From the IMG/VR virus record IMGVR_UViG_2836824207_000004, positions 10,278 to 74,277 of that record: a stretch of 64,000 bases of DNA. One strand, 5' to 3'. Origin of the DNA: a virus (taxonomy: Duplodnaviria; Heunggongvirae; Uroviricota; Caudoviricetes). The number at the start of each line of letters is the position of its first letter. Position 1 is the stretch's first letter. The notes beneath the pieces are model-generated. The model was not told the DNA's origin, ran no database searches, and saw only the letters and a program-made list of their open reading frames with translations. The position numbers and the translations under genes were made by a program. This document shows positions 3,321-60,444 of this stretch, piece by piece.

Positions 3321-3398
3321 GCCGAGAGGGCGGAGAATAAAACACCCGAAAGGGGAATAATCCCGACCGTTCCTTTGGCGGTTTTCGAACCTCTTGGC
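3321..3398 (+). ncRNA. Conserved structured 5-prime leader element, copy A (cis-regulatory RNA candidate)
   Basis: Closing stem gccgagagg / cctcttggc encloses an acccGAAAgggg GNRA hairpin and a second hairpin. It is homologous to copies B (4225-4301) and C (36564-36639) with compensatory base changes. It is preceded by a conserved block GCGGTTTTTTT..TAAAATTTGTGTTTCTCCTTTT. Confidence 0.35.
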
Positions 3399-3419
3399 AA
3401 CCCAACTTAAGGACTAGAA

Positions 3420-3899
3420 GTGCAATTTGTCGAAACAAGTGAGAATAACATCACTTATATTCATACCGAATTTAATATTGAAAATGTAACTTATTTAGCC
3501 ATTTTTTCAAAAGATGATGAAACGTTATTTTTCTTTAACGATGACGTAAATATAACAAAATACATTCATCATCGTCAGGTATATTCTATTAAATTTCTTG
3601 TGAAAGATTATCTTGAAACAGAAAATGATGATTTGTACGCGCCACCGTTGGATCATAAATTTGGCAAAAAACAAATTGCTGAATTAAAACAAAAACTTGA
3701 GGAAATTGTCTATCAGCATTATTTAAGGTTTAAGCCAGATTGCTATGTTTTTGTAGGGGAACGCCCTTCATTAATCAGAATGTATAAAAAACTTTGTGCA
3801 AACCCAAGCGATTTTATGGTAAACTTTAAGCCAATAACGGATTTAGGCAGTCATAGAGATTGTTTTGTGATAAAAACCCCATCCTACAAGGAGGAATAA
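3420..3899 (+). CDS. hypothetical protein (159 aa), GTG start
   Basis: ORF with an AAGGA RBS, lying behind leader copy A. No recognisable domain. Confidence 0.5.
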   Translation: MQFVETSENNITYIHTEFNIENVTYLAIFSKDDETLFFFNDDVNITKYIHHRQVYSIKFLVKDYLETENDDLYAPPLDHKFGKKQIAELKQKLEEIVYQHYLRFKPDCYVFVGERPSLIRMYKKLCANPSDFMVNFKPITDLGSHRDCFVIKTPSYKEE

Positions 3900-4224: not shown

Positions 4225-4301
4225 GATCGAGTGGGTGAGGAATACAATACCCGAAAGGGAAATAACTCCAGCTTACTACTAGGCTTCTGAACCACTCGAT
4301 C
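4225..4301 (+). ncRNA. Conserved structured 5-prime leader element, copy B
   Basis: 10-bp closing stem gatcgagtgg / ccactcgatc, internal cccGAAAggg GNRA hairpin and agctt..aggct hairpin. About 85% identical to copy C, with GU and compensatory changes. Confidence 0.4.
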
Positions 4302-4360
4302 ACCAGTTACCTTTATGATAAAGGCAACTGACATTATTCAGAAAATTAGTAGAGGCAATT

Positions 4361-5257
4361 ATGTCAAATATCATCACCGCTGATTACAACGGCACTCAAG
4401 TTTTCTTTCAAAACGACGCTTATCTCAATGCAACAGCAATTGCTAAACGCTTTAACAAACGCCCTAATGATTGGCTAAATTTACCAACCACACAAGAGTA
4501 CATTGAAGCCTTATCAAAAGCCGAAACAAGAAAATCTGGTAACGCTACCAAAGTGGAAAAATCCCACTTTGTAAAAACAGTAAGAGGTGGTAAAAATTTA
4601 TCAAAGCAAGGAACTTGGCTACATCGCCGTTTAGCTGTTCCATTCGCCCGTTGGTTAAATGTTGAATTTGCAATTTGGTGCGATGAAGAAATCGAGAAAA
4701 TACTAATCGGGCAAAAACAGGCAAACTTATTAACAACAGAAAACGACACCATCACCCCCGAAGAACAACGCCTTATTCAAAACGCCGTTGCTGCAACTCA
4801 TCAACGTACCAAAATGAGTTATGGCGAAATCTGGGCAAGAGTGAAAAATAAATTTGCGGTGGCGAAATATGAGCAAATCAAACGCAAAGATCATCGTGAT
4901 GTGATGATTTACATTGCTTCAATGCACTCAATGCAAGAATTGCCACCCAATAGCCTTGCGTTAGATATGGAAAATTTCTATATGCTAGCTAAAGCAATGA
5001 ATTACATCAATCATTCTGTTGCCGCTTGGGAGCGTTTAGAAGATTTATTTTCTGATTTGGAAAGCCATAAAAACTACAAAACCGCTTTCAACCTTGGCAC
5101 TGCGAGCAATCGCCTTGCACAAACGCTAGAAAGCTTTATCGCCAAGCACACCCAATCGCTTAAAGATAAAAACATACGCGAAGAAATCGAAAACTTGATT
5201 TTTAACAGCCCAAGAACAGAGCAAAGCCCCACAAAAACCGTAAATTACTTACGTTAA
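4361..5257 (+). CDS. phage antirepressor: KilA-N-like N-terminal domain plus C-terminal domain shared with the 35588-36523 paralog
   Basis: N-terminus ITADYNGTQVFFQNDAYLNATAIAKRFNKRPNDWLNL is KilA-N-like. The C-terminal ~170 aa is ~95% identical to the paralog. Confidence 0.7.
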   Translation: MSNIITADYNGTQVFFQNDAYLNATAIAKRFNKRPNDWLNLPTTQEYIEALSKAETRKSGNATKVEKSHFVKTVRGGKNLSKQGTWLHRRLAVPFARWLNVEFAIWCDEEIEKILIGQKQANLLTTENDTITPEEQRLIQNAVAATHQRTKMSYGEIWARVKNKFAVAKYEQIKRKDHRDVMIYIASMHSMQELPPNSLALDMENFYMLAKAMNYINHSVAAWERLEDLFSDLESHKNYKTAFNLGTASNRLAQTLESFIAKHTQSLKDKNIREEIENLIFNSPRTEQSPTKTVNYLR

Positions 5258-7554: not shown

Positions 7555-10500
7555 TAAATTCTCCCTTTCTGTGCTATTCCACCCGTTACGATATGAGCAA
7601 TACGACGATCAGAAACATCTTGAGTCAAATATTGAGCAGCTGGATCTAATGAATTCGATGCTTGAGCAGTAGATTGTTCGACTTTTTGTTGCTCTATTGT
7701 TGCTTTTTTTGCCGTCTCTTGCTCAACGATTTTTAGCGACTCTTTTGAGGTATCTTGTGGCTGTTTAATCTTAGGTATAACCATACCATCTATCGATGAA
7801 ACCGGTTTCATCTGAGAAAGTAAGTCTGTATTTTTCTCTACATATTGTTTACTTAATCCAGTCATCTCGACAGGGTTATTCATAAATTTATCAACAGAAT
7901 TTAATTTGCTTTGCCCTTTTAGCAAGGCATCCCTTCCGTGAGCATTTGTCGTTACATTACCAATAATACCCGCACTAAAACGCGTAAAATCTTTTCCATA
8001 AGATCGATCTTTTAAATAAGCGTCGGCGACTTTGGCGGCGATAACTGGATCATTAACTAAGTCAGGGTTATTCACTAAATCTTCCCCGATCATTTGTCCA
8101 TATCGCATATAATTAGCCCTTCCAGTCAATTGAACAAGCCCGCGACCTCTGAAACGCCAACCATCTCCCTCCTGAGTATTACCTAGCTTAGAGCCATTCG
8201 CATCAGCATATACAACGTTAGCGAGTGCCTCAGGATTACGAACTAACGTGTTTACATCCCCACCCCATTTTTTTATTTTTGCACCGTGTACAGCCATAAT
8301 GCGTTCAGCCGAGCTATAATTCATATTTTCAGATGCCCCGTGTGCGAAATCGCCTGTTTCTCTCGCCATATTAGCAAGTGCAAAACGAATATCTTGTTCT
8401 GATGCACCATTCTTTCGAGCAATTTCAATATAGGCATCTCTCGCTTTAGCGGCATCCCCTTTATTATCAAATGAAACCACACTAGATGAATTGCTCACAG
8501 GCATACCGTTTTCAGTTATAGAAGAAGTCGGGTAGCCTACTTGCTCATTTATATAAGTCGCACCTCCTAATTTCTCTTTTAGAAAAGCAAAAATGTCATT
8601 TAATGTTGTAAAAATTAAACTTAGATATTCATTACTCAATGATACTCGTTCATTCGTATTACTGATTGCATTTACATTTTCTTCTTGAGAATGATTAACT
8701 TGTTGAAGCTGTTGCTCTACCTCTTGAGGCGAGTTTTCTGTAGGAGTTGAATGATTTAGCCCCAACCACCCACTGATCGTACTGATCGCAGAATCGGCTT
8801 TATCGACCGCCCAGTTTTTTACTGATGAACCAATATTTTTTGCACCCTGTACAGCTTGAATCCCAAGTCCTACTGCACCATCCTTTATTTTTGCACCAAT
8901 ATTTTTAGTTGTTTTCCATACGCCTGAGAAATCTAATTCATTCCAAACAGATGTAATCCAACTACTCACGCCCTCCCAAATTTGGTTTAGCTTTTCCCCA
9001 AAACTTCCCCAATCAAGACTATCCCATTGCGTTTTGATCCAACTGCTTGTGCTATCCCACGCTGCACTGACTTTAGCGGAAAAACTATCCCAACTAAGAT
9101 TGTCCCAAGTATCTTTTATCCACGCAATTGAAGCATCCCAAGCACCTGTAATTTTTTTACCAATAATACTCCAATCAAAATCTGCCGCCCACGCACCAAT
9201 TTTTTCACCTATCCAGTCGCCGATCATTGCCCCTGCAATCGTGCCAACAGGCCCTAAAAGCGATCCAATCCCCCCTCCAATTAAGGTGCCAACAGCCCCG
9301 CCGACACGTTTACCACGGTTTGATTTTCCCTCTTCATCTCGGCTATCATCAAATAATCCGCCAATGCCATCGCCAATTGCTAAAAGTGAACCTAATATAG
9401 GAATTTTCTTTAATGCCCCCTTCCCTAATCGTCCAAGCCCACCAAATATACCTTTACCAAGTTTGCCAATACCTCCCAAAAGCCCAGCACCCAATTTACC
9501 CGCACCGCCAAGCATTTTTAAAAGACCTCTTCCAATTGCAGTGGCAAACATAAAAGGTAATCGAGCCAAAAGGAAAGGGAAGCGGGCAAACATTCTCAAT
9601 AACCCAAATAATCGCCCAAAAACGCCATTTCCATTAGGCTTCTTCCAGATCCGCTTTAGCCAACTATTTTGTTGGTTATCAGCTTTTTCCTGTTGCTTAG
9701 TGAATTTTTTAAAAAATCGAAAGAAACGATTATGCTGACGCTGCTCTTTATCTTGGCCTCCAAATAACTTGCCAAATCCTCGCCCAGTAGCACCAACAAC
9801 AGTTTTCGTGGTATCAAATACCGAACCTAGCGGCCCTGTAATTTCTTTGACGCCATCAATAAGCGGATCGAGATTATCAGGGGTATCTATGGCATCTTTA
9901 ATTCCACTTAGCACTTCAACCATTGCGTTTTCGCGTGCAAGTTCCTGTGTTTCCTCCTCCGAATCTGATTTAGTCGGATTTTTTATGCCTTGTTCATCAA
10001 GTTCTGCCTCTTTGACAAAACGTCCGTCTTTATCTCGAACACGCCCGTTTTTATCTCGTTGCCATTGGTTAGGAAGCACTTCAGCATTCTCAGTCCTTTC
10101 CTTTTTCTTTGGTGGTTTATTCTGTTCAAGAATAGGTTGCGTTTGCTGTTTCGAGCTTTTTGTCTGACGTGCTTTTACAACTGGATTTAATTTTTCTTTT
10201 CCTGGATGTGTTTTACGTTCTTTAAAATGTCCAGTGTCAAATCTTGATTTATCATTTCGTTCTTCTTTCTGTTTTACTTTATGCAAATTCTCCTGATTTT
10301 TTGACCGCACTTTATCAACGACCTTGGGTGTTTTCAGTGCTTGAATTAATTCCTCGTTTGTGCGTTTTTCTGACAAATGACGCGATTTTGCTTGTTTCTC
10401 GGCTTGTGCTAACAGTGCAATTTGACGACCACCAAAATTCTCCAAAATATCGCGAATAGATGCGGTATCTTCCTTAATCTCAACTAAGGTATCACGTTTT

Positions 10501-35587: not shown

Positions 35588-36523
35588 TTAACGTAAGTAA
35601 TTTACGGTTTTTGTGGGGCTTTGCTCTGTTCTTGGGCTGTTAAAAATCAAGTTTTCGATTTCTTGCTGTATTTTTTTATCTTTAAGCGATTGGGTGTGCT
35701 TGGCGATAAAGCTTTCTAGCGTTTGTGCAAGTCGATTGCTAGCAGTACCAAGGTTGAAAGCGGTTTTGTAGTTTTTATGGCTTTCCAAGTCGGAAAATAG
35801 CTCCTCTAAACGCTCCCAAGCGGCAACAGAATGATTGATGTAATTCATTGCTTTAGCTAGCATATAGAAATTTTCCATATCTAACGCAAGGCTATTGGGT
35901 GGCAATTCTTGCATTGGGTGCATTGAAGCAATGTAAATCATCACATCACGATGATCTTTGCGTTTGATTTGCTCATATTTCGCCACCGCAAATTTATTTT
36001 TCACTCTTGCCCAGATTTCGCCATAACTCATTTTTGTGCGTTGATGGGTTGCAGCAACGGCGTTTTGAATAAGGCGTTGTTCTTCGGGGGTGATGGTGTC
36101 GTTTTCATTTATTGATAAAACTTTTTCTGCCTTGCCTTTATTCCAATAATCAAACAATGCTTGATAACATTCTCTTTTGTAGGTGATCAAGGTTTCTCTG
36201 ATTTCAGGTTTCACCCGTTTTACATCAATGCCAAATAGCCAGCCGTTGAGGTATTGGATTGGAAGGCATAATGTTTGTTGTTCACCACCTTGTGAAGGTA
36301 TGGTTATAATGACCATACCTTGAGAAAGAACTTCATCGCGTTTAATTCTTGCATATTGAGCTTTCCAGTCCAGACCAATATTTTCACAAATTGGCTTCAT
36401 TGCGACATAATGAACGTTGTTTTGCTCAAATGTAGTTAAAGTGCGGTCGTAAAATTGGATTGTTTGGAGTTGAGTTTGAATTGACATAATAGCCTCTGTA
36501 ATTTTCGAAATTTTGCTAGCCAA
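35588..36523 (-). CDS. phage antirepressor with P22 Ant-type N-terminal domain plus the shared C-terminal domain
   Basis: YVAMKPICENIGLDWKAQYARIKRDEVLSQGMVIITIPSQGGEQQTLCLPIQYLNGWLFGIDVKRVKPEIRETLITYKRECY matches the P22 antirepressor N-terminal pattern. The C-terminal 170 aa is ~95% identical to 4361-5257. Confidence 0.75.
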   Translation of the reverse strand: MASKISKITEAIMSIQTQLQTIQFYDRTLTTFEQNNVHYVAMKPICENIGLDWKAQYARIKRDEVLSQGMVIITIPSQGGEQQTLCLPIQYLNGWLFGIDVKRVKPEIRETLITYKRECYQALFDYWNKGKAEKVLSINENDTITPEEQRLIQNAVAATHQRTKMSYGEIWARVKNKFAVAKYEQIKRKDHRDVMIYIASMHPMQELPPNSLALDMENFYMLAKAMNYINHSVAAWERLEELFSDLESHKNYKTAFNLGTASNRLAQTLESFIAKHTQSLKDKKIQQEIENLIFNSPRTEQSPTKTVNYLR

Positions 36524-36563
36524 TTTAAGGTGTTCTTATAACACGAATACCTTTTGAAATTGG

Positions 36564-36639
36564 TGATCGAGCGGTTCGAAAGCCTACAGCAGGCTGGAGT
36601 TATTTCCCTTGCGGGTATTGTATTCCTCGCCCACTCGAT
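36564..36639 (-). ncRNA. Conserved structured 5-prime leader element, copy C
   Basis: gatcgagtggg / cccgctcgatc closing stem with a GU wobble. Internal cccGCAAggg GNRA tetraloop and perfect agcct-gctgt-aggct hairpin. Confidence 0.4.
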
Positions 36640-46161: not shown

Positions 46162-46266
46162 AAATAACCTCAACTATAAATTTAATTGCAATCAACAAAT
46201 GATAAATCAAGAGTTGATTTTTGTAAACATTTAATTTATTGAAAAACTAAATAATTTATTTAATCT

Positions 46267-46746
46267 ATGCAAAATCAAAACAAGGAGAAGCAAATGGAAA
46301 GTTTGGAGCATCAAGAAGTAGAACTAAGTCTGAAAGATCAGCTCGTTATTAAGCGTTTAGAGCAAATGGTTAAAGAAATTGGAAGTAAAATCGGATTAGC
46401 AAAAATAGCAGATGTATCTCCTCAAGCCGTAAATAACTGGTTTAAGAATGGCAAGGTCAGTGTTGATTCAGCACTAAAGTTACACAAGCACTTTGGCTAT
46501 CCTGTTGAGTGGATATTAGGGAAGGATAATAGCGATAATTCAGTTATATCTGGTAATAAATCACTAAATGTCGTTGGTACAACAATGAATGGCGGTTTGG
46601 TAAATCAAGTAAATAATGAAGGCACTTTGTATACAGAAGATTTGGTTGAGATCAAAGCTCAATTGGCACGCCTTGAGACTAAATTGGATCTATTGCAGCG
46701 TATTGAAACTAAAATTGATGTAATACTAATGCAGAAAGAAAAATGA
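46267..46746 (+). CDS. CI-like repressor, XRE HTH plus coiled-coil C-terminus, no S24 peptidase domain
   Basis: HTH LAKIADVSPQAVNNWFKNGKVSVDSALKL. The C-terminus lacks the LexA-type Ser/Lys motifs. Confidence 0.65.
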   Translation: MQNQNKEKQMESLEHQEVELSLKDQLVIKRLEQMVKEIGSKIGLAKIADVSPQAVNNWFKNGKVSVDSALKLHKHFGYPVEWILGKDNSDNSVISGNKSLNVVGTTMNGGLVNQVNNEGTLYTEDLVEIKAQLARLETKLDLLQRIETKIDVILMQKEK

Positions 46747-47081
46747 AAAACATAGCCAAACGAATTAAAGAAATCAGAGAACGAAAAGGTATATCAAGAG
46801 AAGATCTTGCTGATAACCTACATTTGTCTGTAGAAACATTGATCGGTTATGAAGAGGGATTAACCAAATTATCTACTGACTTAATCAGCGAGTTTGCTTT
46901 TGTTGATGAACATGGAGAATTATTCATTAAACGCCTACAACAAGTGCCGAATGGCGGAATAAAAATTTTATCGGACAATCCTCACTACGCCCCATTAGAT
47001 TTTACTCAAGAGGAATTGGAACGTTGTTACATTATGGGAAAATTGGTCAAAGCACTGCCATTACATATGATTGATCTATAA
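46743..47081 (+). CDS. XRE-family HTH protein (112 aa) co-transcribed with the repressor
   Basis: ATGA overlap with the repressor gene. HTH RIKEIRERKGISREDLADNLHLSVETL. Confidence 0.55.
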   Translation: MKNIAKRIKEIRERKGISREDLADNLHLSVETLIGYEEGLTKLSTDLISEFAFVDEHGELFIKRLQQVPNGGIKILSDNPHYAPLDFTQEELERCYIMGKLVKALPLHMIDL

Positions 47082-47302: not shown

Positions 47303-47842
47303 ATGGCAAGTATTGAAGATATTATTATTCCCCAGCAAGAAATCAATCATATCATGGCGATAGAAAAACAAATTCATTTTAAAGGAGCCACATGGGGGAA
47401 AAAACAAAAAACTCAGCCTTATCCTTATTGGCTTGAGTTAAAGCTTCCGTTCTTCGATAGTGATGGATTACCTATACCTCAGCTTAGGGCCTATTTTGCC
47501 TATCGTCCTGCTCGTAGAGAAAATTTAATGCCATCGATGAACTTTATTGCTTTTTATAAAAACAGACGGTTATTTGCTATTGATCAAGGTGAAAAGTTAG
47601 TTCATGTAAATAAAATAACTCATGTAAAGCCCATAGCCGAAAGCCGTATTTGTGGTGCTCACTACCACATTCTACACGGTAAAGAAAACCAAGAAACGGG
47701 CTATTTACTAGATGAAAAATATCAAAAATCAAATGATTTTTTTGAATTGATGTGCTATTTTCTAGCAAAATTTAATACTGTCGCAGTGGGGCAAATTCCT
47801 CACCCAATCTTATCAAACAACGGACAAATGGAGCTATTATGA
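47303..47842 (+). CDS. hypothetical protein (179 aa), first gene of the rex-position pair
   Basis: Track ORF. No recognised domain. Confidence 0.55.
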   Translation: MASIEDIIIPQQEINHIMAIEKQIHFKGATWGKKQKTQPYPYWLELKLPFFDSDGLPIPQLRAYFAYRPARRENLMPSMNFIAFYKNRRLFAIDQGEKLVHVNKITHVKPIAESRICGAHYHILHGKENQETGYLLDEKYQKSNDFFELMCYFLAKFNTVAVGQIPHPILSNNGQMELL

Positions 47843-48603
47843 TATGCAGCACAGTCTTATCCAATCTAGGCTATGAATGTCATTCTATTGCCGATGATTT
47901 GATTTTAATTAATACCCCTTTCACTCTTGAAGATGGTAGCGTTATTCAGGCATACATTGAACAAGTGGGAGAAAATCGTTTTACTGTCACTGACGATGCT
48001 CAAACTTTGTGGGAAATGAACGCTCGAGGAATCAATCTAACCACTAACCGTATCGACCAAATAAAAAGCACGTTAAAACGTTACGGATTAAACTTGAACG
48101 ATCGAGCGGAAATCAACACGACAACAAGCGGTGAAATGCTTACACATAATTTGCAACGCATCATTCAAGCGGCAATTATCACAGATACGCTTGCTATGGA
48201 TTGGTACAACGTGCCAATAGATAAATTCGAGATGATGGTAAAGTCTGATTTTCGCCATCATCAATTCCCTCAAAATATCGGATTTGATGTGAAAAAATCA
48301 GGATTGAGCGGTCATCAAATTACAATCCCAATTTCATTAACCGGCGGAGAGCGACACACCAAACAGATTTTTACAACGAGTGTAAAAGCAAAAGGCAGTT
48401 GGAGCAGTGCTTATGGCGTTCTAGGTAAAATAATGGATCTGACCAATCCAACAGCACAAACAAATGATGAATCTTATGTGGTCATTGATGATAAAGCAGT
48501 AGGTGATCAATTAAATAAACTTATTCTGCTCTTTAATCAATCTCCGGCAAAGATTCTGCCTTATGATAAAAAAGATATTTGGCTTGAAAAACTCGCCGCT
48601 TAA
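47839..48603 (+). CDS. hypothetical protein (254 aa), second gene of the rex-position pair
   Basis: Start overlaps the upstream stop (ATGA), so the two are translationally coupled. A terminator follows. Confidence 0.55.
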   Translation: MICSTVLSNLGYECHSIADDLILINTPFTLEDGSVIQAYIEQVGENRFTVTDDAQTLWEMNARGINLTTNRIDQIKSTLKRYGLNLNDRAEINTTTSGEMLTHNLQRIIQAAIITDTLAMDWYNVPIDKFEMMVKSDFRHHQFPQNIGFDVKKSGLSGHQITIPISLTGGERHTKQIFTTSVKAKGSWSSAYGVLGKIMDLTNPTAQTNDESYVVIDDKAVGDQLNKLILLFNQSPAKILPYDKKDIWLEKLAA

Positions 48604-48610
48604 AACATCA

Positions 48611-48636
48611 AACCGCCCCCACGGCGGTTTTCTTTT
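48611..48636 (+). terminator. Rho-independent terminator
   Basis: aaccgcc-cccac-ggcggtt followed by TTTC TTTT. Confidence 0.65.
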
Positions 48637-48894
48637 GCCTCAAATCCCTTAGAACCATTTTCGTGACGCCACGAAAATGGTATTCCAGCAAAATTCATTT
48701 CTCAATTTCCACTTTTTTACGCCTTCTTTGTTTAAAAGATAAGCAATTAAACAAATTTTTTCAAATTATTTTCCTTTAAAAATCAACAATATATTTACTT
48801 TTGGTGTAAATTTTATATTTATTTGATAAATTAAATATTTACAAATAATTAAATTTTTGATTTAATACCCCCATCAAAACGAAACAACGTTTAA

Positions 48895-48908
48895 TGCTCT
48901 TTAACAAT
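48895..48908 (+). promoter_or_regulatory. boxA-like antitermination element TGCTCTTTAACAAT (copy 1), with hairpin 48924-48943
   Basis: 14/14 match to the start of E. coli rrn boxA (TGCTCTTTAACAATTTA). A hairpin agccctg-cggtaa-cagggct lies 15 nt downstream, the spacing expected for a nut site. Confidence 0.5.
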
Positions 48909-48950
48909 CAAGATGAAATAAAAAGCCCTGCGGTAACAGGGCTTGGATAA

Positions 48951-49121
48951 TTAAACTTCGCGAACAGGTGTTTGTCGGTTAGTGTCCATAACAAGCCCGA
49001 TACAATGTAAGCAGTTTTGTTTGGTCGTATAACCTTCACTTTGAGCTATAGGTTCGTGATTGGCGGCTTTTAGTCGCCAATACCACTGACCATTAACACC
49101 TTTGAAAATTTCAAAATACAT
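48951..49121 (-). CDS. DUF1508 (YegP-like) small protein (56 aa)
   Basis: MYFEIFKGVNGQWYWRLKAANHEPIAQSEGYTTKQNCLHCIGLV fits the DUF1508 repeat. Confidence 0.7.
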   Translation of the reverse strand: MYFEIFKGVNGQWYWRLKAANHEPIAQSEGYTTKQNCLHCIGLVMDTNRQTPVREV

Positions 49122-49135
49122 AGAGGTAACTCCTT

Positions 49136-49357
49136 ATGCAAAACGAAATGAAACGCTATGCAATTTCTTACTTCTTCAAAGGAAAGAAGTGGTGTTCAGA
49201 TGTCTACGCCAACTCATTTGAAGAAGCACAAGAAAAAGTCAAAGCAATGTCCCAAGCAACTATTGATGGTGAGCTTTACTGTTCAATATATGTTCCAGTC
49301 AAGCCACAATCACGCATTGCAAGGTTGCTTTTAAAGCTACTACATAAATTTAGCTAA
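49136..49357 (+). CDS. hypothetical protein (73 aa)
   Basis: Track ORF with an AGGTAA-like RBS. Confidence 0.45.
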   Translation: MQNEMKRYAISYFFKGKKWCSDVYANSFEEAQEKVKAMSQATIDGELYCSIYVPVKPQSRIARLLLKLLHKFS

Positions 49358-49381
49358 TTCAATATTTCATCTTGGTGATGA

Positions 49382-49395
49382 TGCTCTTTAACAAT
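49382..49395 (+). promoter_or_regulatory. boxA-like element TGCTCTTTAACAATTTAGAAC (copy 2)
   Basis: 17/20 identical to rrnB boxA. Confidence 0.5.
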
Positions 49396-49613
49396 TTAGA
49401 ACCCACTCCCCTTTTTACAAAAGGAAGCCGAAAGGTTGGCAAGTCTGTGCCAGTGGGGCTGAGGCAAACAGGCTTATTTATTCAATGCCGTATTTACGGA
49501 GAACCAAGGCAGCAGAACCGAGAGGAATGCAATGCAAAGAATCAACCGTGATACCGAGCCGAGATGAACGTTAGACAAGTGCGGCATTGAATAAATAACA
49601 ACAACGGAGGTGA

Positions 49614-49931
49614 ATGATGAATATCGTCATTGAACGTAACCCAGCGAGCAAAAAATACTGCGAAAAGGCAGAAATTCGCTCAATGGGCAAGGCTGGCAGA
49701 TTAGCAAGAATGTTTGCCAAATCTCGCCAGAAAAAAATCAAAACGGGAAAACCTGACCGAATTAAGACCGCACTTGTAATGTTGCCGATTCCGTCAAAAT
49801 CCCAAATTGAAAAAGCGGCGGCTCAATTTCAAGCCGTCAAACCGAATTACCACAAAGGCGAAATCGGCGTAAATACCGTGCGGGCCACACAAAAAATCCG
49901 CCGTGGTTGTCAGGAGTTAATGAGGATTTAG
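49614..49931 (+). CDS. small basic protein (105 aa); N-like antiterminator is only a guess
   Basis: Lys/Arg-rich. First sizeable ORF after the second boxA. Confidence 0.45.
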   Translation: MMNIVIERNPASKKYCEKAEIRSMGKAGRLARMFAKSRQKKIKTGKPDRIKTALVMLPIPSKSQIEKAAAQFQAVKPNYHKGEIGVNTVRATQKIRRGCQELMRI

Positions 49932-49934
49932 ACG

Positions 49935-50192
49935 ATGAAAAATAAAATTACTGATTTAAACAACCATCTTTTTAGTCAATTAGAAAAATTGTTAGATGAA
50001 GATTTAACAGATGAAGAATTAAAAAGGGAAATTGCTAGAGCGAATGCGGTATCTGGTATTGCATCGAATATCATTCAAAATTCTAATACAGCCATTAAAG
50101 CAATGCAGCTTTTCGGTGACCGCACTATTGAGGCAGATGCACCCGATTTTTTAAGAATATCAAAGGCACAAAATGACAAAAAAACGCTTTAG
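49935..50192 (+). CDS. hypothetical protein (85 aa)
   Basis: Track ORF. Confidence 0.45.
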   Translation: MKNKITDLNNHLFSQLEKLLDEDLTDEELKREIARANAVSGIASNIIQNSNTAIKAMQLFGDRTIEADAPDFLRISKAQNDKKTL

Positions 50193-50880
50193 GTTTACTG
50201 ATGAACATATTGCTTTTATCCGTGAACATAAAGATTTAGCTCCTAAAGATCTCATTCAGGCCTTTTATCAACAATTTGGTTTGCTAAAGAATAGGCAGGT
50301 TTTTAGAAAGCTAAAAAAACGATTAGGAATTATCTCAACGGTTCAACATTGCAATCGATATACCAAAGAAGAGTTAGCCTTTATCAAAGAAAATTGCACT
50401 TTACCGCAAGCGGAATTAACCAAACTATTTAATCAAAAGTTTAACCGTAATCAGACCGCACAAGTAATTAGGGCACTGTGTGCTAAAAGAGGTTGGCTGA
50501 CTGGTAGAAATGGGCGATTTAAAAAAGGAGAACATTTAAAGCCTATTGGTTACGAGCGATTTTGCCCTATGGCAAAAGCCGTGTTGATAAAAACAGGAGT
50601 TAAGCGTTATGAAAGAAAATCACACGTTATCTGGGAACAAGCCTTTGGCAAAATCCCTCAAGGATTTGTTTTGTGGTTTAAAGACGGCAATATTCAAAAT
50701 TGTGAGTTATCTAATTTAGAACTAATCAGTCGTAATGAAATGCTATGGCGACATAAGCTGAATTACCACGAATTAGACAGCAGTGTGAAACAAACTTTTA
50801 ATGTGTTTATTCAACTACGAGAAAAATTGATAAAACTCAAAAAGCAACAGCAACAAAAGGACCGCATAGCAAAAGGATAA
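50173..50880 (+). CDS. HNH endonuclease (HNH_3-like)
   Basis: SHVIWEQAFGKIPQGFVLWFKDGNIQNCELSNLELISRNE is typical of HNH_3 homing-type endonucleases. Confidence 0.7.
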   Translation: MTKKRFRFTDEHIAFIREHKDLAPKDLIQAFYQQFGLLKNRQVFRKLKKRLGIISTVQHCNRYTKEELAFIKENCTLPQAELTKLFNQKFNRNQTAQVIRALCAKRGWLTGRNGRFKKGEHLKPIGYERFCPMAKAVLIKTGVKRYERKSHVIWEQAFGKIPQGFVLWFKDGNIQNCELSNLELISRNEMLWRHKLNYHELDSSVKQTFNVFIQLREKLIKLKKQQQQKDRIAKG

Positions 50881-50935
50881 GCTAAGGTGCTGTCACCACC
50901 TGAGATTGTAGGTTCAAGTCCTACTGCGGTCGCCA
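50860..50935 (+). tRNA. tRNA-like element with Asp (GUC) anticodon arm, non-canonical 5-prime half that overlaps the HNH stop
   Basis: Perfect acceptor pairing GACCGCA/TGCGGTC with a G discriminator and CCA. T-arm gtagg-ttcaagt-cctac. Anticodon arm aggtg-cuGUCac-cacct. The D-arm is one nt short and the V-loop is 6 nt. Confidence 0.3.
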
Positions 50936-50943
50936 ATTTATCA

Positions 50944-51009
50944 CAAGGCACACTGAGTCATTATCTACGGATTATTTTAGACCAATCTTCTTGCCGTAGT
51001 TAGTGTGCC
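50944..51009. repeat. nested inverted repeat (12-bp arms ACAAGGCACACT / AGTGTGCCTTGT with an inner 6-bp pair)
   Basis: Perfect 12-bp arms separated by 42 bp. Lies directly after the tRNA-like element. Confidence 0.6.
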
Positions 51010-51116
51010 TTGTCATAACTTTCATTCAAAACCGCATTCTTAGCCGCTCGTTTTTAGTCTTTTTCATCGTGGCTTTGCGTGCGGTTCTAAATGAGATGAG
51101 AAATAGGAGAAACGCA

Positions 51117-52265
51117 GTGAAAAAATATGAATTAACCGATGAATATATTGAGATCGGATTTACAACTAAAATTAAACTCTATCGCATAAAAGCTTTAGTA
51201 GCAATCGCATCAATCGGCGTTAGTGCTGGTGATTTGGGTGGCTATATTGAGAAAGAGTCAAACTTAGATCAGAGCGGCGATGCCTGGGTGTACGATAATG
51301 CCAAGGTGTACGATAATGCCAAGGTGTACGGCGATGCCGTGGTGTCCGGTAATGCCAAGGTGTCCGGTAATGCCAAGGTGTCCGGCGATGCCGTGGTGTG
51401 CGGTAATGCCGTGGTGTACGGTAATGCCAAGGTGTACGGCGATGCCAAGGTGTGCGGCGATGCCAAGGTGTACGGTGATGCCGAGGTGTACGGTGATGCC
51501 GTGGTGTGCGGTGATGCCAAGGTGTACGATAATGCCGTGGTGTGCGGTGATGCCGAGGTGTACGATAATGCCGTGGTGTCCGGTGATGCCGAGGTGTCCG
51601 GCGATGCCAAGGTGTACGGCGATGCCGTGGTGTGCGGTAATGCCGTGGTGTACGATAATGCCGAGGTGTGCGGTGATGCCGTGGTGTACGGTGATGCCGA
51701 GGTGTACGGTGATGCCAAGGTGTACGGCGATGCCGTGGTGTCCGGTGATGCCAAGGTGTCCGGCGATGCCGTGGTGTGCGGTGATGCCGTGGTGTACGGT
51801 AATGCCAAGGTGTACGGCGATGCCGTGGTGTACGGTGATGCCGTGGTGTCCGGTGATGCCGTGGTGTACGGTGATGCCGAGGTGTACGGTGATGCCAAGG
51901 TGTACGGCGATGCCGTGGTGTCCGGTGATGCCAAGGTGTCCGGCGATGCCGTGGTGTGCGGTGATGCCGTGGTGTACGGTAATGCCGTGGTGTGCGGTGA
52001 TGCCAAGGTGTACGGTAATGCCGTGGTGTGCGGTGATGCCAAAGTGTCCGAGAGATCTGATATTGTATGGTTTTCGAATGTTGGTACGGAGTACGGAACA
52101 TTAACCGTATTTAAAACTAAGCAAGGAGTATTGTGGGCTACTAGAGGATGTTTTAGTGGCTCTGTTGAGGAGTTTTTGAAAAAATCCGCGGAAGTTCACG
52201 ATGAAAAAACGAAAAGAGAATATCAACTCTTGATCGAAGTGGCTAAATCCAGATTAGGTGAATAA
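51117..52265 (+). CDS. 6-residue-repeat (beta-solenoid-like) protein, about 43 copies of V-[YSC]-G-[DN]-A-[KVE] plus unique N- and C-terminal domains
   Basis: GTG at 51117 has an AGGAGA RBS. The in-frame ATG at 51096 is an alternative start. The repeats are encoded by 18-bp tandem DNA repeats. Confidence 0.6.
   Translation: MKKYELTDEYIEIGFTTKIKLYRIKALVAIASIGVSAGDLGGYIEKESNLDQSGDAWVYDNAKVYDNAKVYGDAVVSGNAKVSGNAKVSGDAVVCGNAVVYGNAKVYGDAKVCGDAKVYGDAEVYGDAVVCGDAKVYDNAVVCGDAEVYDNAVVSGDAEVSGDAKVYGDAVVCGNAVVYDNAEVCGDAVVYGDAEVYGDAKVYGDAVVSGDAKVSGDAVVCGDAVVYGNAKVYGDAVVYGDAVVSGDAVVYGDAEVYGDAKVYGDAVVSGDAKVSGDAVVCGDAVVYGNAVVCGDAKVYGNAVVCGDAKVSERSDIVWFSNVGTEYGTLTVFKTKQGVLWATRGCFSGSVEEFLKKSAEVHDEKTKREYQLLIEVAKSRLGE
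51271..52050 (+). repeat. about 43 tandem 18-bp repeats (GGTGTACGGCGATGCCAA variants)
   Basis: Variation is concentrated at codon positions giving Y/S/C, D/N and K/V/E. All three minus and plus frames are open here, which is an artefact. Confidence 0.8.
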
Positions 52266-52318: not shown

Positions 52319-52346
52319 GCCCACTGTAACAGGTGGGCTTTTTTAT
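52319..52346 (+). terminator. Rho-independent terminator
   Basis: gcccac-tgtaaca-ggtgggc followed by TTTTTT. Confidence 0.7.
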
Positions 52347-56723: not shown

Positions 56724-56745
56724 GCCCTCAGTTGAGGGCTTTTTT
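56724..56745 (+). terminator. Rho-independent terminator
   Basis: gccctca-gt-tgagggc followed by TTTTTT. Confidence 0.7.
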
Positions 56746-57466: not shown

Positions 57467-57525
57467 TCATTAAAAATTCATAAAATTTAACCGCTAAATA
57501 GCGGTTTTTTATTGGAGAAAAGAAA

Positions 57526-60018: not shown

Positions 60019-60020
60019 CA

Positions 60021-60048
60021 AGCCACTGTAACAAGTGGCTTTTTATTA
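60021..60048 (+). terminator. Rho-independent terminator
   Basis: agccact-gtaaca-agtggc followed by TTTTT. Confidence 0.65.
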
Positions 60049-60378: not shown

Positions 60379-60444
60379 CTCAATTACCAACATATTTATC
60401 ACTAGCCTAACCTAGCAAGTTAGGCTTTTTTATTGGAATAAATT

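Follow-up and report, generated by a model that had tools for sequence, protein, structure and literature searches.

We analyzed a 64,000-nucleotide (nt) stretch of a Caudoviricetes genome (IMG/VR record IMGVR_UViG_2836824207_000004, positions 10,278 to 74,277; hereafter the window) and found that its plus-strand early operon carries two boxA elements of the type known from bacterial rRNA (rrn) operons. The window is from an Avibacterium paragallinarum prophage, as indicated by identical proteins named from this species. From their sequence, position, strand, and conservation, both elements are probably functional BoxA RNA sites of the rrn/CRISPR type where Nus factors load and shield the early-left transcript against termination, and the phages that carry them very probably borrow the rRNA antitermination machinery of the host to read through their early genes. 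We judge on sequence grounds that the element works like the BoxA of rrn and CRISPR leaders and is placed like the nutL site of phage lambda. BoxA-dependent antitermination is textbook knowledge in the lambda and rRNA systems. For Pasteurellaceae phages, the literature that we found describes neither nut nor boxA sites; the paper on a Mannheimia lambda-like phage annotates only Q, and the word boxA is absent from it.

The original prediction placed two rrn-type boxA elements at positions 48895 and 49382, and both were recovered as exact copies of TGCTCTTTAACAAT on the plus strand (boxA1, 48895-48908; boxA2, 49382-49395). The window contains these two exact matches, whereas 0.00 were expected from 100 dinucleotide shuffles. 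The copies form the core of a 20-nt direct repeat with 18 of 20 positions identical. Both read GCTCTTTAACA and fit GYTCTTTAANA, the functional gamma-proteobacterial boxA consensus obtained by mutational work (PMC5725501). By itself, this degenerate 11-mer would turn up in the window about 0.9 times by chance and is not significant, so the case for boxA is built on the exact 14-20-mer, its strand, its position, and its conservation. BoxA2 matches the leader boxA of Escherichia coli rrnB over 17 nt (TGCTCTTTAACAATTTA; the E. coli leader was read as …CACTGCTCTTTAACAATTTATCAG…). A 5-bp hairpin lies directly 5′ of each copy, in the hairpin-then-boxA order of rrn leaders, and boxA is mostly unpaired in the predicted RNA fold.

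To compare the phage element with the rrn leaders of the host family, genome contigs were scanned for a boxA followed after 91-151 nt by a Pasteurellaceae-type 16S start. The sequence TGCTCTTTAACAA(T), identical to the phage boxA, was present in nine leaders from seven Pasteurellaceae genera (Actinobacillus, Rodentibacter, Cricetibacter, Mesocricetibacter, Phocoenobacter, Pasteurella bettyae, and a Glaesserella metagenome-assembled genome), where it stands approximately 141-162 nt ahead of 16S and is followed by TCAGACAATCTGTGTGGGCAC. The original prediction had allowed that the host rrn boxA might differ; at the family level it is the same. The boxA of the E. coli 16S-23S spacer, TGCTCTTTAAAAATC, likewise has phage counterparts, in Pasteurella phage Pmp14 and Mannheimia phage 587AP2.

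The two elements lie on the sense strand of their operon, downstream of a predicted promoter whose position is kept in the related leaders. Transcription diverges near position 46200. The minus-strand, pR-type arm contains cro-like, cII, Rha, O, DnaC-like, Dam, and NinG genes. The plus-strand arm starts with a split cI-like repressor, two moron genes (one DUF1828), and a terminator at 48610-48630; these are followed by an AT-rich region, boxA1, a minus-strand DUF1508 gene, a 73-aa gene, boxA2, and a 230-nt untranslated leader, and then by a 105-aa open reading frame (ORF), an 85-aa gene, an HNH endonuclease, tRNA-Asp, RecT, YqaJ exonuclease, SSB, RdgC, and a C5 methylase. The plus-strand arm is a lambda pL-type early operon, in agreement with the early leftward-type operon that had been proposed, and the elements do precede the basic 105-aa ORF and the recombination genes RecT, YqaJ, SSB, and RdgC.

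The AT-rich stretch (48625-48874) has a GC content of 24.8%, compared with 38-44% around it. It had been suggested to hold the promoter and operators, and the present results support this. A pL-type promoter is predicted in it (Table 1), with transcription probably starting near A48873 as read from the promoter hexamers. The operator-like 22-nt sequence over the −35 element (48826-48845) is identical at 21 of 22 positions to that over the −35 element of the divergent pR-type promoter (46218-46239, minus strand), and a 22-mer common to both promoters would look like shared operators. In prophages with different repressors, identity to the window starts at the −10 region; upstream of it, those prophages diverge, each with its own −35/−10 pair at the same spacing. 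Promoters with this spacing and other operators were found at this position in loci L001, L002, L004, and L018-L023 (our locus numbers) and in approximately 66 IMG/VR leaders. Hairpins equivalent to the terminator at 48610-48630 stand before the leader in the related loci L001, L018, L020, and L012. In regards to the claim that both boxA copies sit just downstream of the AT-rich region, it holds for boxA1; boxA2 begins 487 nt beyond boxA1, behind two genes. Descent of the phage promoter and leader from an rrn promoter was considered and dropped, as approximately 11 of 20 identities past the −10 element, counted by eye, are not significant.

The conservation of boxA was examined in related phage leaders. 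Homologues of the 105-aa protein are encoded at 31 loci, which come from Avibacterium, Glaesserella, Pasteurella phage Pmp14, IMG/VR contigs, and metagenomes and have approximately 22 distinct leaders among them. A consensus boxA was present 150-241 nt upstream of the ATG in all 31. In the leader alignment (A6), columns 2 and 4-10 of boxA (G, TCTTTAA) are invariant, compared with a mean column identity of 61%. The transcript start CAUCAAAACGA is common to a much larger leader group, and an unbiased scan of IMG/VR viral contigs anchored on CATCAAAACGAGATA gave 66 distinct leaders in promoter context. A sense-strand consensus boxA was found within 2 kb in 65 of these, the exception being a 204-nt fragment; it lay within 90 nt in 53 leaders and at 303-334 nt, past a short first ORF, in 12. 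No antisense boxA match was found in the 66 leaders, and 3 of 30 chance anchor matches outside the promoter context had a boxA. The hairpin directly 5′ of boxA is present in all leader types with varying sequence: AAACG/CGUUU and UCAUC/GAUGA in the window, GAGC/GCUC in G. parasuis, CGAGAU/AUCUCG in Pmp14, and GAGAU...AUCUC in most IMG/VR leaders. As judged from these alignments and scans, which cover approximately 90 related phage leaders, boxA is under selection in these leaders. An earlier scan for CAAAACGA-N(6-36)-boxA had given 119 matches, approximately half of them chance by our estimate, and was replaced by the anchor scan.

Three further observations concern these leaders. Mannheimia phage vB_MhS_587AP2 (L011, 3159-3476) has the same promoter-hairpin-boxA leader with the boxA TGCTCTTTAAAAATC, which continues with an unrelated untranslated region of approximately 300 nt and a different small gene; its record annotates no nut site. 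An identical promoter-boxA module stands in L001 and L005 (CP051639.1, AFFP02000041.1) between a RusA-Q-334-aa gene block, which directly precedes it, and genes for an integrase and an N6 methylase; the promoter-boxA module is therefore shuffled between very different prophages. Ahead of the predicted start by approximately 85-130 nt lies a block of approximately 50 bp (AAGCAATTAAACAAATTTTTTCAAATTATTTTCCTTTAAAAATCAACAA, 48741-48789) that is conserved between prophages whose repressors and operators differ and that recurs in 587AP2 and Pmp14. This block might bind a host factor, act as an UP-like element, or hold a minus-strand promoter.

The sequence between boxA2 and the 105-aa gene folds into a conserved RNA, as examined by RNAalifold and pair counting on 12 diverse leaders. 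The helices P1 and H3, an invariant stretch, a 5-bp helix, and the long-range stem P2 are listed in Table 1. Because the H3 loop pairs with sequence beyond the invariant GCUGAGGYAA, the 5-bp helix is a pseudoknot. P2 closes a variable 89-nt insert and ends 8 nt ahead of the Shine-Dalgarno sequence GGAGG (49606-49610). In the supported helices, 98% of cells were paired versus 35-49% in slid controls, and the covariation score was 0.66 versus a maximum of 0.13 in the slid controls. The GAAA-loop hairpin of the boxA2 multi-helix domain was found in the Avibacterium subgroup only. No Rfam family matched the leader (49400-49600) at the gathering threshold or at E<=5. By covariation, the boxA2 leader is a structured RNA, and the boxA-linked structured RNA together with its protein family is the most novel part of the system.

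Pairing within this leader also bears on a translational or autoregulatory role, in which a Nus complex at boxA2, or pairing of the boxA CUCU with the Shine-Dalgarno GGAG, would repress translation of the 105-aa ORF and promote Rho termination, as at suhB, so that early-left expression is kept in check. BoxA-dependent repression of suhB is documented (PMC5725501), and in the RNAalifold result, 9-12 of the 12 sequences have boxA columns 3-6 paired with Shine-Dalgarno columns 248-251. However, these pairs never covary and therefore carry no evidence. BoxA stands 150-241 nt from the ATG, whereas the analysis in PMC5725501 took sites within 50 nt; most related leaders have boxA ahead of heterogeneous genes or long untranslated stretches, and boxA1 precedes an antisense stretch rather than a gene. 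We consider a translational role quite unlikely.

The 105-aa ORF and its 18 relatives match phrog_16543 only, a family with 19 representatives among 1.84 billion proteins, of which Pmp14_0054 is a remote member by hidden Markov model. The AlphaFold (AF2) model of the protein is non-globular (predicted template modeling score, pTM, 0.23), and its residues 25-42 form a long basic helix. The profiles phrog_271 and Pfam PF25694 are matched by lambda N and by P22 gp24, and neither profile matched any of the 19 family members at E<=1. A PDB profile search with the 105-aa protein gave no N match, and tblastn of this protein against 50,697 phage records gave no match. Comparison by hhalign with the lambda-N/P22-gp24 alignment gave only the short motif SRVxxA at the same relative position (E 0.016-0.1). 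We did not accept the 105-aa protein as an N homologue because Pfam, PHROGs, PDB, and hhalign gave this motif only. No lambda N homologue was thus detected; the original prediction had likewise suggested that one is perhaps lacking. An analogy with N by position is possible.

These data allow a strict lambda-type nut site to be weighed, in which boxA2 and the structured RNA would work only with the 105-aa protein as a very diverged analogue of N. The protein would bind the RNA by means of its basic helix and bridge to NusA and RNA polymerase, and boxA alone would be inert. The layout mirrors that of lambda, where pL is followed by nutL, a leader of approximately 220 nt with a long stem, and N. 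In addition, boxA is linked to the 105-aa gene at a near-constant distance in 31 of 31 loci, a conserved pseudoknotted RNA lies between boxA2 and this gene, five intrinsic terminators stand downstream, and the protein is approximately 100 aa, basic, and non-globular, with the basic helix and a weak collinear motif SRVxxA(I/L)sL at the same relative position, common to lambda N and P22 gp24. These points are opposed by the failure of the family to match PF25694, phrog_271, or any N in PDB, by the hhalign values, and by the pR-type arm, which has no nut-like site. Furthermore, such a protein is missing from the neighborhood of 62 of 67 related boxA leaders, and the gene that comes first after boxA varies across the wider family. 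Because the phrog_16543 gene lies within 3 kb in only 5 of the 67, boxA generally does not depend on the phrog_16543 protein. The element is moreover of the strong rrn type, which needs no N to bind NusB/E: rrn BoxA binds NusB approximately 17-fold more tightly than lambda nutL BoxA (130 vs 2200 nM, and 8 nM with NusE; PMC2800207). N-like systems with diverged proteins are still being found, for example Gp17 of mEp021 (PMC11893012). Taken together, we regard the strict nut site as doubtful. The proposal that the two elements are a nutL/nutR-like pair fails, as they are a direct repeat flanking a cassette in one operon and the pR-type arm has none.

The presence of two copies is explained by this cassette. 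The DUF1508 and phrog_2920 genes are, by their placement in different prophages, a mobile two-gene cassette. In Glaesserella (G. parasuis) prophages, the cassette sits downstream of the 105-aa homologue, with no boxA before the DUF1508 gene and its hairpin, and its distal junction retains ACAATTTAGA only; in the window as in Pmp14, it lies within the leader and has the boxA direct repeat on both sides. The cassette and boxA1 are both missing from leaders of the L018-L026 type, which carry a 114-aa ORF right past the conserved 5′ end and a single boxA ahead of the structured leader. Two boxA copies are present because the cassette sits in the leader between duplicated boxA. The hairpin AGCCCTG-CGGTAA-CAGGGCT (48924-48943), predicted 15 nt past boxA1, is present. 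Its role as a nut boxB was ruled out, since its T-tract is on the minus strand and it is the terminator of the DUF1508 gene (48923-48944), directly past the stop codon of this gene, with which it travels. The DUF1508 homologues of Pmp14 and G. parasuis have their own hairpins of different sequence at the same place.

The same arrangement raises a non-functional recombination scar, in which the 20-nt repeat would be a junction duplication from cassette insertion, the elements would serve as conserved linkers for module exchange between mosaic phages, and the likeness to rrn would reflect captured host sequence. A direct repeat around a cassette bounded by inverted repeats, the different location in G. 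parasuis with only ACAATTTAGA left at the distal junction, and the rarity of two boxA copies (1 of 66 leaders) agree with this. On the other hand, 64 of the 66 leaders have a single boxA without duplication, the matches are on the sense strand only with none antisense, and the boxA core is invariant amid diverged flanks. In Pmp14, the copies TGCTCTTTAAAAA and TGTTCTTTAAAAA are unlike each other, with a flank identity of approximately 70%, yet both lie within the functional consensus, which argues that selection keeps both. A scar accounts for the copy number of two and not for the existence of the boxA sequence, and we consider it a most improbable origin of these elements.

A perfect 12-nt inverted repeat (CAAGATGAAATA and TATTTCATCTTG) encloses the cassette and covaries in other phages (ATCTAGATGAAA, ATTTGTGATGAAA, and ATTGTGATGA). 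The repeat could either pair as a long-range helix in the pL RNA or mark the edges of the cassette at the DNA level. The local hairpin 5′ of boxA2 (49367-49381) overlaps the right arm, and the hairpin and the inverted-repeat pairing are therefore alternatives. Inverted repeats of 10-13 nt occur across these phages, also in L010 (2723-2744 and 3165-3186) and in the IMG/VR loci L153, L169, and L224.

Such helices suggest a role in RNA folding or processing, as has been proposed for the leader-trailer helices of rRNA. The boxA-tethered complex would keep the 5′ arm of a long-range helix close to the polymerase while the 3′ arm is still being transcribed, so that the early RNA of the phage folds and is processed correctly, for example by RNase III. 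Two helices would be involved: the 12-nt inverted repeat, which encloses the 442-nt cassette, and P2, which encloses 89 nt. In four sequence variants, the covarying repeat has its left arm starting right past boxA, P2 is a covarying 17-bp duplex, and PMC10250234 and PMC8632103 describe a chaperone role of the rrn antitermination complex. Because the left arm lies within the T-tract of the minus-strand terminator, the full 12-nt helix can form on the plus-strand transcript only. However, 12 bp is short for RNase III and the cleavage role is a proposal, the complementarity of the inverted repeat is equally kept at the DNA level, and a folding role is compatible with antitermination, to which it would be an added function. 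We consider it unlikely as the explanation of the elements.

We therefore describe the favored reading, protection of the early-left transcript by host Nus factors, as a sequence of steps. Upon loss of the repressor, the pL-type promoter (approximately 48838-48866) would fire, and the nascent RNA would expose boxA1 approximately 22 nt past the start and boxA2 487 nt later. The NusB-NusE(S10) dimer of the host would bind each BoxA, and NusA, NusG, and probably SuhB would join to make RNA polymerase termination-resistant, as on rRNA operons and CRISPR arrays. The Nus complex would keep Rho from aborting the mosaic operon of approximately 15 kb, which contains RNA of the kind that Rho attacks: approximately 260 nt antisense to DUF1508 and the 256-nt untranslated structured leader at its start, the tRNA gene, and several intergenic gaps. 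A consensus boxA and host Nus factors alone shield untranslated CRISPR arrays from Rho termination (PMC7665894). BoxA2, the pseudoknotted leader RNA, and the 105-aa protein would act as a conserved module, and the protein may add N-like activity against intrinsic terminators further down.

Several findings weigh against this reading. The promoter and start are predictions, and a consensus promoter scan of the window did not list this promoter because TTTAAT fails the position-2 rule of the scan. A rut-like C-rich, G-poor segment was looked for in the leader, and none was seen. The leader of the pR-type (minus-strand cro-cII) arm contains no GCTCTTTA, GCTCTTA, or CTCTTTAA, so a nutR-like site was not found, and the 48-nt cro-cII gap has no boxA; therefore, the phage does not need boxA everywhere. 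The single rrn-leader scan returned Orbaceae and seven other Pasteurellaceae genera and no Avibacterium (paragallinarum), and the identity to the host boxA therefore holds at the family level only. The rrn boxC CAGACAATCTGTGTGGGCAC, which follows boxA in all Pasteurellaceae rrn leaders, is absent from the phage copies, neither of which is a complete rrn antiterminator with boxC (…UGUGUGGG…) 3′ of boxA. The boxA duplication could be a by-product of cassette insertion. Finally, rrn-type complexes are known to act mainly on Rho-dependent terminators, and the operon contains five strong intrinsic terminators (the scan found 35 vs 17.6 expected for the region). Host factors alone may fail to carry the polymerase through these five, so that the 105-aa protein could still have an N-like role in its subgroup.

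The likenesses to known systems are as follows. In regards to the rrn leader antiterminator (boxB-boxA-boxC with NusA/B/E/G, SuhB, and S4), the phage element shares the same boxA over 13-17 nt (TGCTCTTTAACAA(TTTA)), the promoter-proximal position, the hairpin immediately 5′, a long-range helix that starts right past boxA, and a tRNA gene in the transcript. Unlike the rrn leader, it lacks boxC and drives a repressor-controlled, protein-coding operon with intrinsic terminators downstream. Like lambda nutL/N and P22 gp24, it stands between a repressor-controlled early-left promoter and a gene for a basic protein of approximately 100 aa, with boxA and structured RNA in a leader of approximately 230 nt with a long stem, and with recombination genes and terminators downstream. 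In contrast to lambda, its boxA is the full rrn consensus and not CGCTCTTA; the P1/H3/pseudoknot and P2 fold after boxA2 replaces a simple boxB; the protein has no N-family match; the pR-type arm has no site; and most related leaders have no such protein. By these features, the element falls outside the lambda-type nut sites, having no boxB, no N family protein, and no nutR. HK022 put RNA mediates protein-independent antitermination, is not known to contain a boxA, and is present in both early operons. The phage leader resembles put in that a lambdoid phage without a functional N carries structured RNA in its early leader, and differs in having boxA on one early arm and no Rfam match. Like the non-rRNA BoxA of the suhB 5′ untranslated region and CRISPR array leaders, which act with host Nus factors only and antagonize Rho (Baniulyte 2017, Stringer 2020), the element is a consensus boxA that stands close to where a long transcript with little translation begins. 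Those sites belong to chromosomal host genes or arrays, whereas the phage site is in an early operon, is duplicated, and is linked to a phage RNA-protein module.

A broader proposal is offered tentatively. Temperate phages of Pasteurellaceae may possibly have swapped the lambda N/nut system for the host rRNA boxA on one early operon. In a subset, boxA, the pseudoknotted RNA (GCUGAGGYAA, P2), and phrog_16543 might form a new RNA-protein module for antitermination or RNA processing, and the boxA-adjacent helix around the DUF1508 cassette might mimic the rRNA leader-trailer helix.

If the favored reading is true, the prophages of Avibacterium, Glaesserella, Pasteurella, Mannheimia, and relatives, which make up a large group, control their early-left genes through host Nus factors without a recognizable N. 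These prophages reside in veterinary and human pathogens, and their early-left genes are recombination, anti-defense, and moron genes. BoxA would then be a simple marker of the start of the early-left operon in unannotated prophages, and the group would provide a natural test case of whether phage gene expression needs no more than a consensus rrn boxA. It would also supply a new conserved structured RNA, along with a protein family whose function can be tested.

Table 1. Positions of the boxA elements, the leader RNA, and neighboring features in the window.
Feature	Position	Strand	Evidence or remark
Intrinsic terminator	48610-48630	+	8-bp stem + TCTTTTG; closes the repressor/moron unit after the DUF1828 gene (47839-48603)
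Predicted pL-type promoter	48826-48866	+	−35 TTTACA 48838-48843, 17-nt spacer, −10 TTTAAT 48861-48866
Small hairpin AAACG-AAACAA-CGUUU	48877-48892	+	RNA fold; directly 5′ of boxA1
boxA1	48895-48908	+	TGCTCTTTAACAAT; ~22 nt past the predicted transcription start
Inverted repeat, left arm	48909-48920	+	Repeat search; CAAGATGAAATA; first base after boxA1; perfect 12 nt
DUF1508 gene terminator	48923-48944	−	9-bp stem; AAGCCCTGTTACCGCAGGGCTT, then TTTATTT on the minus strand
DUF1508 (YegP-like) gene	48951-49121	−	Pfam PF07411 E=6.8e-17, phrog_1422; convergent with the pL-type promoter
73-aa gene, phrog_2920 (function unknown)	49136-49357	+	PHROG E=3.1e-32
Inverted repeat, right arm	49363-49374	+	Repeat search; TATTTCATCTTG
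Local hairpin UCAUC-UUGGU-GAUGA	49367-49381	+	RNA fold; directly 5′ of boxA2
boxA2	49382-49402	+	TGCTCTTTAACAATTTAGAAC; copy tied invariably to the structured leader and 105-aa gene
Structured domain	49402-49472	+	P1, H3, invariant stretch, pseudoknot-type helix (fold and covariation)
P1	CCCAC 49402-49406 with GUGGG 49453-49457	+	Fold; covariation by eye: CCCAC/GUGGG, CACUC/GAGUG, CACCC/GGGUG
Hairpin H3	49437-49441 with 49448-49452	+	Fold; covariation by eye
Pseudoknot-type 5-bp helix	49444-49448 with 49468-49472	+	4/5 pairs altered on both sides
Invariant GCUGAGGCAA (GCUGAGGYAA)	49458-49467	+	Leader comparison
17-bp long-range stem P2	49475-49491 with 49581-49597	+	13/17 pairs with compensatory double changes
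105-aa basic ORF, phrog_16543 (function unknown)	49614-49931	+	PHROG E=5.4e-22; candidate partner of the boxA2 leader
tRNA-Asp	50860-50935	+	ARAGORN and Rfam; untranslated stretch inside the early-left operon
Five strong sense-strand intrinsic terminators in the operon	52319-52338, 56724-56739, 57489-57506, 60020-60041, 60404-60426	+	Terminator scan

Some further features of the window were noted. The cI-like repressor at the start of the plus-strand arm appears split into a 159-aa helix-turn-helix (HTH) protein (46267-46746) and an overlapping 112-aa protein (46743-47081) with an HTH and only the C-terminal part of the S24 peptidase domain, whereas related prophages have single HTH+S24 repressors of 217-229 aa. 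The 85-aa ORF (49935-50192) is phrog_2044, labeled "RNA polymerase beta subunit," which is implausible at 85 aa; it has approximately 76% DNA identity over approximately 100 nt with Staphylococcus epidermidis phages, which is odd across phyla. The tRNA-Asp(GTC) gene overlaps the last 21 nt of the HNH endonuclease ORF (50173-50880). A tRNA also occurs in the same operon of relatives, as an annotated tRNA-Arg in 587AP2 and as a tRNA-like stretch seen by eye at approximately 4040-4115 in L012. The 420-aa ORF at 51003-52265 encodes a YdcK-type beta-solenoid protein with G[DN]A[KVE]V[YSC] repeats, and its repeat DNA also opens ORFs of 257-293 aa in three other frames. Outside the early-left operon, three copies of the Rfam family sRNA-Xcc1 (RF02221; 60-72 bits) were found at 3321-3406 (+), 4225-4309 (+), and 36558-36639 (−). 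The first two stand directly 5′ of the ORFs 3420-3899 (no Pfam match) and 4361-5257 (KilA-N + ORF6C), and the third directly 5′ of the minus-strand ORF 35588-36523 (P22_AR_N antirepressor + ORF6C). The sRNA-Xcc1 copies look like a leader RNA of Ant/KilA-type genes.

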